Part shown: piece after piece, positions 12,720 to 15,885 of the stretch
Numbering within the stretch: position 1 is the stretch's first letter
Layout: the number at the start of each line of letters is the position of its first letter
Assembly (NCBI GenBank): GCA_963703385.1
Contig: OY969816.1
Location: forward strand, 1,357,483 to 1,421,482
Direction: 5' to 3'
DNA length: 64,000 nucleotides
DNA from: an uncultured Pseudomonadota bacterium
Lineage (GTDB): Bacteria; Pseudomonadota; Alphaproteobacteria; Rhizobiales; Beijerinckiaceae
Notes under the pieces: model-generated
What the model saw: only the letters and a program-made list of their open reading frames with translations
What the model was told of the DNA's origin: nothing
Database searches by the model: none
Translations under genes and position numbers: made by a program

Positions 12720-13472
12720 TCAGCCGAAAGCGCCGGCGAAATGGGCGAGCGCCGGATCGTCGGTCAGGTCGAGCCGCAGCGGCGTCACCGAAATGCGATT
12801 CTGCGCCACGGCCTCCAGATCGGTGCCTTCGCCCGCCTTGAATCGCGGCCGCTCGAAGGCGATCCAGTAATAGGGATTGCCGCGCCCGTCGAACCGCGCC
12901 TCGATCTTCATCAGCTCCTGCTCGCGCCGTCCCTGCCGCGTCAGGGTCACGCCCTGCACAGCCGAAGGCTCGCAAGCCGGAAAATTGACATTCATCAGCA
13001 CGCCGGGCGGAAAACCGCGCGCCACGATTTTCCGGATCAGCTCCGGCGCGAGCGTCTCGGCGCATTCCCAGGGCGTGCCCACCGGCGAATAGCATTGCGA
13101 CAGAGCGATCGAGGCCACGCCGAGCAATGTCCCTTCCATCGCCCCGGCGATGGTGCCGGAATAGGTCACGTCCTCGGCGACGTTCTGGCCCTTGTTGACG
13201 CCGGAAAGGATCAGGTCCGGCGGCGAATTGATCATCAGCTTGCGCACGCCCATGATGACGCAGTCGGTCGGGGTGCCCTTCACCGCATAATGACGGTCGG
13301 TGATCTTGCGCAGGCGCAACGGATCGGACAGCGAAAGCGAATGGGCGACGCCCGACTGGTCGCTCTCCGGCGCCACCACCGTCACATCGTCGGAAAGACT
13401 CTTCGCAATCCGCTCCAGCGCTCTGAGCCCAGGCGCGTGAACGCCGTCATCGTTGGTGATGAGAATGCGCAT
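12720..13472 (-). CDS. surE: 5'/3'-nucleotidase SurE
   Basis: [33 protein letters not shown]. Confidence 0.97.
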
Positions 13473-13562: not shown

Positions 13563-15086
13563 TCAGGGCTGCGTGATTTTTTCCACGCCACCCATATAGG
13601 GCCGCAAGGCCTCCGGCACGCTCACCGAGCCGTCCGGGTTCTGGTAATTCTCCAGCACCGCGACCAAAGCGCGGCCGACCGCGACGCCCGAACCGTTGAG
13701 GGTGTGGACGAAGCGCGGCCCCTTGCCCTCGGCCGGTCGATAGCGCGCGCCCATGCGCCGGGCCTGGAAATCGCCGCAGACCGAGCAGGACGAGATTTCG
13801 CGATAGCGGTTTTGCCCCGGCAGCCAGACTTCGATGTCGTAGGTTTTTTGCGAAGCAAAACCCATGTCGCCGGTGCAGAGCGTTACCACACGATAAGGCA
13901 ACTTAAGGCGCTTCAGCACTTCCTCAGCGCACTTCGTTAGGTAATCGTGCTCGGCGAGCGACTGTTCGGGCGTCGTAATCGAGACCAGTTCGACCTTGGT
14001 AAACTGGTGCTGGCGAATGATACCACGGGTGTCGCGCCCCGCCGCGCCGGCCTCGGCGCGGAAGCAGGCGGTGCCGGCGGTCATGCGTAGCGGCAGCGTG
14101 GATTCGTCCAGAATCTGCTCGCGGACGAGATTGGTCAGCGGCACCTCGGCGGTCGGGATGAGCCATGAACTTTGTGACATACTCCGGACCTCCGCAAAGC
14201 CCAGAAATTTCCTCAAGATTAGGCTGCCGTTCTCGTTCAAGTTCGAATACGCTTCTTCTTCAGCTTCGCTTATGGCAGCAATTTCGCTTGATATTGCCTT
14301 TAGCTCTTTCGGTGTCAGTGGCCGTGTCAACCACGGTGCGCCAGGAACAGAATCCAAAATGCTGTCTAAGCTGTTGAAGTTGATTTCAGTCGAGGCAAAA
14401 TATTGATCTTCTCGGAATTTGGGCAATTGCGCCGTACCGAACATGGCGTGGTCGCGCACGAGCAGCGGCGGAGCGACTTCCTGAAACCCATGCTCCTCGG
14501 TGTGCAGGTCGAGCATGAACTGGGCGAGCGCGCGCTCCAGCCGCGCCAGCTTGCCCTTGAGCACCACGAAACGCGCGCCGGACATGCGTGCCGCCGCCTC
14601 GAAATCCATCATTCCAAGGCTTTCGCCGATCTCGAAATGCTCTCGAGGCTTTAAGCCTTCGGGGAAGACCGGCTTGTCGCCAACGCGACGTTCTTCGCGG
14701 TTAAAATTCTCGTTGGGACCATCAGGAACGATCGGAGCCGGCAGAGGTCGATTGGGGATAGTGGCGAGAAAGTCGTTCAATTTACGATTGGCGTCACGCT
14801 CCCTTTTTTCGTGAGAGCCGATATCCGTTTTAATAATAAGGACGTTGTCTTTGAGGCTCTGCGCGCGAACGGTATCTTTCGTCTTCATTGCCTCGCCAAT
14901 TGCGCGCGCGTAGGTGTTCGCCTGCTCACGAAGACTCTGGGCTTCCTTTGTCGCCTTGATACGACCGTCATCTAGTTCGATGAGACTCGCAATTTTCCCA
15001 TCAGCCTCTATTTCGTCTGGATTGCGCCGCAAGAGGTCGGCGCGAAAGCCGTCGAGGTCGTCGCGGATCGATTTGATGTCGTGCAT
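13563..15086 (-). CDS. serS: Seryl-tRNA synthetase with an in-frame insertion
   Basis: MHDIKSIR start, GQLPKF-like [54 protein letters not shown]. Confidence 0.96.
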
Positions 15087-15114
15087 GAGAGGCTCGTCAG
15101 TCCGGGCGCGATTT

Positions 15115-15885
15115 TTAGGTTGCGGACGCGGCGCGATTCTTTTCGATGAGGCCGACCGCGAATACGGCGCCTTCGTAAAGAAGCACCATGGGAAGGACAA
15201 GGGAGATCATCGAAATCAGGTCGGGCGGCGTCAGAATCGCCGCGACCACCGTGATCAGGACGATCGCATAGCGCCGCTTCGCTTTCAGGAAAGCCTGGTC
15301 GATGATCCCGGCCTGGCCGAGCAGGGTGAGGATCACCGGAAGCTGGAAGGCGGCGCCGAAGGCGAAGATCAAGGTCATGATCAGCGACAGATATTCGCTG
15401 ACCTTGGGCAGAAGCTCGATCGTCGCCTCGCCCTTGACGTTCAGTTGCTGGAAGCTCACGGAAAAGCGGATGAGGAAGGGCATGACCGCGTAATAGACCA
15501 GCAGCGCGCCGAGGAAGAACAGGGTCGGCGTCGCGACGAGATAGGGCGCGAAAGCCCGCCGCTCGTGGCCGTAGAGGCCCGGCGCGACGAATTTGTAAAT
15601 CTGCAGCGCGATGATCGGAAAAGCGATGAAGGCGGCGCCAAACATCGACAATTTCAGCTGGGTAAGGAATTGCTCCAGGAAATGGGTGGCGATCAGCTTG
15701 GCGTTCTCGGCGCCGACCACCCGGACATAGGGCTGGAGCAGGATGTTGTAGATCTCGTGCGAGAAATAGAAACAGGCCACGAAGGCGATGAGAAAGGCGA
15801 CCAAGGCCTTGATCAGCCGGGCGCGCAGTTCGATCAGGTGATCGATCAGGGGCGCCTTGGTGGCGTCGATATCGGCTTGGGTCAT
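15115..15885 (-). CDS. tatC: Twin-arginine translocase TatC
   Basis: [36 protein letters not shown]. Confidence 0.96.

Follow-up and report, generated by a model that had tools for sequence, protein, structure and literature searches.

A predicted helical subdomain in a mosaic Rhodoblastus serS, probably imported by recombination, points to a replaceable cassette in a catalytic-domain loop of seryl-tRNA synthetase

The window analysed here, a stretch of 64,000 nucleotides taken at its full length, contains on its minus strand the gene for seryl-tRNA synthetase (SerRS), serS, with tatABC upstream and surE-pcm downstream. The open reading frame that contains the gene spans 13563..15200 on this strand and the start is most likely the one that reads MHDIKS at window position 15086, giving a protein (P0001) of 507 amino acids. 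By its sequence, P0001 is a bacterial-type class IIa SerRS: residues 1-114 match the Pfam family Seryl_tRNA_N (PF02403; 62 bits, cutoff 28), residues 306-481 match the class II core (PF00587; 138 bits), and the comparison with solved bacterial SerRS gives E = 1e-120. The SerRS core residues, including those of the TxE strand, are invariant in an alignment of 22 sequences, and in a model of the whole protein the N-terminal arm is formed by helices 25-68 and 72-109. The 4.0-Mb genome holds a single serS match and four tRNA-Ser genes. This source genome (G000) is a Rhodoblastus, going by the names on its close relatives; Rhodoblastus names are borne, for example, by the 90% cluster of its SurE. 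The genes and motifs on which the following description depends are:

15115..15885, minus strand: tatC, the upstream neighbour and a relatedness control (93.6-95% amino acid identity to the congeners G018, G010 and G022)
13563..15086, minus strand: serS, encoding seryl-tRNA synthetase P0001 (507 amino acids plus stop; from the open reading frame, its translation, Pfam and SerRS structures)
14415..14429, minus strand: QLPKF motif, putative 5' anchor of the cassette (L221, P222, K223 and F224 invariant in the alignment)
14166..14399, minus strand: T1-type insert, residues 230-307, a predicted helical subdomain (without counterpart in solved SerRS; from homologous inserts and AF2 modelling)
14142..14162, minus strand: LIPTAEV motif (TxE strand), putative 3' anchor of the cassette (I310 to V315 invariant in the alignment)
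12720..13472, minus strand: surE, the downstream neighbour and a relatedness control (92-94% amino acid identity to G018, G022 and G010)

Between LPKF and LIPTAEV sit 77-78 additional serS codons. Solved SerRS structures cover the protein as two separate blocks, residues 2-231 and 306-499 (residues 306-504 alone score 271-281 bits), the Aquifex SerRS has 3 residues opposite about 74 of the query, and Pfam gives no match across residues 230-305. The reading frame is open throughout the insert, which has a GC content of 0.474 and a third-position GC (GC3) of 0.526, against 0.601 and 0.725 in the remainder of serS; the genome mean is 0.636, and 0.9% of the 234-nt windows of the genome are equally GC-poor. 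A frameshift as the origin of the low GC is excluded by the GC of the three codon positions of the insert (0.45, 0.45 and 0.53), none of which is GC-rich. The same serS allele is also present in fragments of other assemblies (P0178 and P0180), which rules out an artefact of assembly. The insert is not the only GC-poor part of the gene: the N-terminal arm has a GC of 0.528 and a GC3 of 0.58-0.61.

The insert belongs to a family, defined in the present analysis and here called T1. Searched alone against 5.8 billion proteins, it finds one SerRS, P0002 (60% identity, gap-free), and a profile of four inserts retrieves 94 proteins at E up to 0.001, nearly all of which are SerRS of 495-517 amino acids. 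About 90 further SerRS clusters of alphaproteobacteria have T1 inserts, with 28-60% identity to the G000 insert, and all homologues occupy the identical site of SerRS. Their length is mostly 77 ± 1 amino acids (71-78 in most of 85 full-length SerRS), and conserved positions include A-S-x-E-I-D-W (with a W/F variant), P, G-S-L-x-L-x-x-F and a closing W. The window insert extends over 77 amino acids from LPKF+6 to W-LIPTAE, has these conserved positions and is significantly similar to the family, with E = 8.5e-37 when the T1 profile is run against its own genome. Named carriers include Methylocapsa acidiphila, a 'Bradyrhizobiaceae' MAG and, as a cluster member, a Roseiarcus MAG.

Structure prediction indicates that T1 is a compact, folded helical subdomain, in which a short strand and a short helix are followed by three helices and a return strand. 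AF2 modelling of the insert with 51 sequences gave a pLDDT of 87-96 over the central 50 residues, and the model of the whole protein (insert pLDDT 86-93) agrees with that of the insert alone. A Foldseek search of the T1 model against the PDB produced no hit at E up to 0.001, the matches beyond this limit being weak three-helix resemblances, and comparison with Pfam and the protein atlas yielded no usable fold or name. T1 also has no profile similarity to T3, the commonest insert type of the genus (hhalign probability 2%).

An in-frame insertion of atypical composition in an essential gene might be a mobile element, that is, an intein remnant, an RPE- or MITE-like repeat or a retroelement variable region; we find this scarcely credible, as the insert shows neither intein ends nor a second copy, terminal repeats or a plasmid or phage match, and its homologues are confined to the same SerRS site. 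An intein is rejected on the grounds that the insert ends in SQSS before W, without HN, and gives no Hint or intein Pfam match at E up to 10. A repeat of the RPE or MITE kind is rejected since the sequence is found at a single locus, has no direct repeats and is accompanied by one weak 14-nt inverted pair only, which lies outside the insert. Neither the insert nor the arm DNA recurs elsewhere in the 4.0-Mb genome (blastn, word size 7), and no protein-level copy of the insert was found in it; the absence of a second segment copy, together with tatABC, surE and pcm as neighbours, also speaks against a diversity-generating retroelement with this segment as its variable region. An earlier note on this DNA, made from the sequence alone, had described a low-GC in-frame insertion of about 78 codons in SerRS with a helical-looking peptide that lacks intein motifs. 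The open frame, the missing counterpart in solved SerRS, the confidently predicted helical subdomain and the lack of a Cys or Ser start, an HN end and a Hint domain all bear this out, and the coordinates and the GC count of 47.5% given there were right to within 1-2 bases.

Within Rhodoblastus, all 25 further species genomes lack T1, and T1 carriers amount to three of 401 genomes in a sample of the family and two of 401 in a sample of the order. The congeners instead hold at least five insert types that are unalignable to T1, including T3 (41-50 amino acids), T4 (57), T5 (22), T2 (50, also seen in other families) and singletons, and the three closest genomes, G018, G010 and G022, carry inserts other than T1. 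Between sister species the flanks are about 86-94% identical, whereas the inserts between the shared conserved motifs are unalignable. Unrelated alternative inserts between conserved flanks are thus present in the alignment of serS over relatives that the earlier note had proposed, and vertical conservation across the genus, which it had named as the outcome that would speak against an exchangeable insert, is clearly not what is seen. In two MAGs of the genus, at loci L003 (G023) and L013 (G008), an interruption of the serS frame lies within a related insert, and the two sequences are set apart by several 1-nt indels; these breaks are likely long-read assembly errors, and a split gene is possible.

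The difference between G000 and its relatives is not limited to the insert. A sliding profile of nucleotide identity between G000 and the close relatives L004, L006 and L005 divides serS into the following pieces:

14652..15059, minus strand: putative recombinant patch 1, codons ~10-145, the coiled-coil tRNA-binding arm (identity ~0.50 over codons 10-130)
14442..14639, minus strand: native-like segment, codons 150-215 (identity 0.88-0.96 to L004, L006 and L005, with 0.92-0.96 over codons 160-200; GC3 0.77-0.96)
14145..14432, minus strand: putative recombinant patch 2, codons ~219-314, the insert and adjoining motif codons (identity falling from ~0.9 to 0.3-0.45, the latter over codons 220-295)
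13902..14027, minus strand: possible third, weaker patch, codons 354-395 (identity 0.69-0.79 against 0.83-0.91 among the relatives; GC3 0.62-0.73)

The arms of the relatives have 0.80-0.94 nucleotide identity among themselves against about 0.50 to G000, and at the amino acid level 0.82-0.93 among themselves against 0.45-0.63 to G000; the G000 arm is unlike the arm of any of the 14 congeners compared, whose arms are similar among themselves, and BLASTN cannot align window positions 14685-15011 to G022. Patch 2 has its left border within the QLPKFREDQ codons and its right border within IPTAE, and G000-specific synonymous differences start already in the codons of both motifs. Downstream of the insert the identity of G000 to its relatives is mostly at least 0.86, although a third, small stretch, codons 354-395, may likewise have been imported. 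For comparison, the nucleotide identity of tatC between G000 and its relatives is mostly 0.88-0.98, with two windows at 0.81-0.82. Synteny with G022 extends over 37 kb at 82-92% nucleotide identity, and the only unalignable stretches inside genes are the two serS patches, all remaining unalignable gaps being at gene boundaries. The proportion of synonymous differences (pS) is 0.72-0.78 in the arm patch and 0.84-0.94 in the insert patch, saturated in both, next to a dS of 0.43-0.57 in the C-terminal domain. Saturated synonymous sites in both patches argue for replacement and are more than positive selection alone can account for; the collapse of identity and this saturation in two patches together identify G000 serS, on the strength of these alignments, as a recombinant mosaic.

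We consider it probable that a folded T1 subdomain was imported by recombination into this mosaic serS and that the loop which carries it is a replaceable cassette. In the proposed model, T1 sits in the catalytic domain, on a loop that tolerates insertions and links the LPKF turn to the TAE strand; it represents an old, length-conserved insert family and did not come to G000 by descent along with the remainder of serS. A divergent serS allele would have supplied codons ~219-314 and ~10-145 by homologous recombination, while the core segments between both patches stayed native. The near-invariant flanking motifs would serve as recombination anchors, and the same would apply generally in the Hyphomicrobiales sampled.

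Alternatively, T1 could be ancestral to the genus and have been retained vertically in G000 alone, with the arm diverging in place. The flank tree does nest the genus among T1-bearing clades, so that its ancestor probably had T1, and the G000 insert is nearest to that of the sister clade, as expected of an ancestral allele: in the insert tree it groups with P0002, P0015 and P0051 (SH-aLRT 95), and in the flank tree the clade of these three proteins, which contains a Roseiarcus-named cluster, is sister to Rhodoblastus. However, tatC, surE and the serS core all place G000 among G018, G010 and G022 and not at the base of the genus, the patches are saturated and sharply bordered beside a C-terminal domain that is not, and the arm departs from that of all 14 congeners, which are mutually alike. 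Retention would also presuppose that inserts were replaced many times independently or that a polymorphism was kept for long, in its own right a form of cassette behaviour, and we regard retention as very unlikely. The patchy spread of T1 could in part reflect repeated loss of an ancestral T1, but G000, nested deep in a T1-free genus, calls for either import or a long-kept polymorphism.

With import by recombination as the preferred reading, the source of the replaced pieces has to be considered. Among 5.8 billion proteins no donor allele is present, the best insert being 60% and the best arm 55-57% identical. A search of cluster representatives with the insert gave, apart from a spurious repeat protein, two fragments of SerRS, a pattern scan of genome contigs with a two-sequence insert alignment gave no match, and none was found among plasmids or phages; DNA of the P0002 clade comes from G450 (L236) only. 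As no donor was found, we infer the direction and source of the transfer, the source presumably being an unsampled relative. By affinity, the insert points to the SerRS clade sister to Rhodoblastus, to which Roseiarcus-like MAGs belong. The arms of congeners resemble that of G000 more than those of the Roseiarcus-like clade do, so that insert and arm may come from different sources.

Variation at the same loop is found across the Hyphomicrobiales sampled. In 184 serS genes from reference genomes and metagenomes the loop measures 5-94 amino acids, with a 5-residue loop in many relatives; inserts of at least 20 amino acids are present in 112-114 of the genes and most of them are mutually unalignable, and when the first 196 sequences were clustered 36 inserts were singletons. 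Twelve further close pairs have an identity of 0.75-0.96 in the core elsewhere and of 0.32-0.53, the random level, in the insert. In these pairs the left border is at QLPKF and identity is back, at 0.86-0.96, within a few codons, from LIPTAEV on; the arm identity is 0.82-0.90 in 11 of the 12. The distribution of T1 across genera and families conflicts with the tree of the catalytic core, on whose well-supported branches at least eight changes are counted for T1, at least six for T2 and at least three for T4 (these are quick SH-aLRT trees of 286-424 columns, in which many forks are unresolved). The two other T1 hosts of the family sample likewise have congeners that carry different inserts. Three further comparisons concern the same loop: of two Methyloceanibacter MAGs, L119 has no insert and L127 one of 68 amino acids, their arms being divergent (0.64 nucleotide identity); in genus g159, L064 and L067 have inserts of 31-32 amino acids and L068 one of 81; and in genus g157, L055 and L056 carry two unrelated inserts of 57-59 amino acids.

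The low GC of the insert, too, has to be seen against the background of the whole site. Insert GC3 is lower than that of the C-terminal domain in 107 of 112 genes (mean difference -0.23), while GC1 and GC2 are unchanged and the GC3 of the arms differs by -0.02 only. The deficit persists, at -0.20, when amino acid composition is controlled for by the codon preferences of each gene itself (negative in 105 of 114), which excludes amino acid composition as its cause. Inserts have a GC3 of about 0.6 regardless of the GC3 of the host (r = 0.19), and the four T1 inserts for which DNA is available, from four genera, have 0.52-0.62 against 0.79-0.90. Types that are common to many congeners have a host-like GC3 (T3, 0.75-0.84; T6, 0.84-0.87), and a deficit in the arm, as seen in G000, is unusual, being shared by nine of 184 arms. 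As low GC3 is general to inserts at this site, it does not prove recent transfer. The earlier note had taken the composition as foreign and from this had suggested an exchangeable cassette in an essential gene; the composition turns out to be typical of the site and to carry no mark of recent transfer, so that this part of its argument is weak, but the cassette itself finds support in the unalignable inserts of sister species and in the conflict between T1 and the core tree.

It is possible, though we hold this view only tentatively, that the low GC reflects a local regime, for example one in which non-homologous alleles form no heteroduplex, are thereby spared GC-biased gene conversion (or some other force that favours GC) and drift towards the mutational equilibrium with its AT bias. 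A deficit that is independent of the host, survives the composition control and recurs in T1 of four genera, with widely shared types such as T3 and T6 being host-like, is what such a regime would produce. The mechanism, however, is read from the pattern, the low GC3 of the G000 arm is left out by it, given that arms generally are not GC3-poor, and rapid exchange of inserts from a moderate-GC pool predicts the same; both explanations fit.

Once present, the inserts appear to evolve under ordinary constraint. Within a type, their dN/dS is 0.07-0.42, compared with 0.06-0.18 for the C-terminal domain and 0.05-0.35 for the arm, ratios which show purifying selection and mark the inserts as constrained polypeptides. 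Low dN/dS within types means that the variation arises via replacement rather than through gradual divergence. Each of the four tRNA-Ser genes has a counterpart of 98-100% identity in G018, G010 and G022, from which it follows that exchanged arm and insert serve the same substrates; co-evolution with tRNA is thereby excluded as the cause of the arm replacement.

From the 5-residue loops of relatives, the shared tRNA-Ser and the negligible effect reported for human Insertion II on aminoacylation, we infer that T1 is an accessory subdomain and dispensable for aminoacylation; it may provide an additional contact to tRNA or a partner, or none. Insertion II of human SerRS (G254-N261) is reported to be located near the active site and to have a negligible role in aminoacylation (PMC10817482). 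In the cytosolic SerRS of higher eukaryotes, Insertion II appears to lie in approximately the same catalytic-domain loop, upstream of the TxE strand (query residue 306 corresponds to about chain residue 264). It comprises 8 residues, whereas T1 is predicted to fold over 77, and it is fixed in a large clade and not swapped between sister species. A further difference is that a non-canonical DNA-binding role has been described for Insertion II.

What drives the exchange is a question separate from its mechanism. Turnover could be driven by selection, with arm and insert acting as docking surfaces for an antagonist (a toxin, a phage factor or an inhibitor carrier, for instance) and rare imported cassettes sweeping repeatedly, a view that is compatible with recombination as the mechanism. 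It takes up the suggestion of the earlier note that inhibitors, toxins or phage might exert diversifying selection. The turnover far outpaces that of the surrounding genome: one genus holds at least 5-6 insert types, 12 close pairs are swapped, and patches inside genes are found in serS alone over 37 kb; both swapped parts are surface modules. On the other hand, the dN/dS within types is that of ordinary purifying selection, and neutral exchange via ultra-conserved, GC-rich anchors predicts an equal pattern; we know of no SerRS-binding antagonist besides active-site inhibitors. On balance we think such a driver unlikely. The same doubt attaches to a wider proposal, that the LPKF/TAE loop of the Hyphomicrobiales, and sometimes the arm, is a polymorphic cassette locus in which many ancient, folded inserts circulate through recombination between lineages, rare surface variants escape an agent that docks on SerRS (a toxin, a phage factor or a route of inhibitor delivery), and the GC3 deficit marks escape from GC-biased gene conversion.

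Aminoacyl-tRNA synthetases are textbook examples of slowly evolving, vertically inherited core genes and serve as markers in phylogeny. Their surface loops are known to carry conserved signature indels and idiosyncratic insertions, which leave catalysis intact; signature indels are stable clade markers, whereas the SerRS loop varies among congeners and is occupied by dozens of unrelated sequences. Mosaic genes for penicillin-binding proteins in Streptococcus and Neisseria arise by interspecies homologous recombination, with a known driver (antibiotics) and known donors. As in serS, divergent blocks alternate with native ones in a single essential gene and the junctions lie in conserved stretches; in contrast to serS, where one block is a non-homologous insert and the donor is unsampled, the blocks of the pbp genes are homologous throughout. 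Rickettsia palindromic elements are multi-copy, palindromic in-frame repeats found at many loci in surface-exposed positions, also in essential proteins. T1 resembles them as an in-frame addition in alphaproteobacteria but differs in being single-copy and limited to a single site in a single protein. Both mosaic genes and lineage-specific insertions in synthetases are thus known kinds, and the searchable literature contained no account of variability at this SerRS loop in bacteria or of such behaviour.

The case is one of an essential synthetase with a loop that would act as a variable locus, in which many inserts are predicted to fold. If the pattern holds, serS trees of the order would be partly recombinant, the loop would provide a natural permissive site for inserting domains into SerRS, and the GC3 deficit of the inserts would offer a within-gene test of how GC is maintained in GC-rich bacteria. 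If a selective agent does drive the turnover, this would amount to a new type of conflict with a translation enzyme at its centre.

Two minor observations were made among the serS matches. A contig titled Leptospira interrogans (L080) carries an alphaproteobacterial-type serS that is 79% identical to the C-terminal domain encoded in the window, and probably reflects contamination of the Leptospira interrogans assembly. In G485 (genus g24), C-terminal serS matches of 82% identity each lie on two contigs, C5 and C6, which could be explained by an additional copy of the gene, by splitting in the assembly or by heterogeneity among strains.
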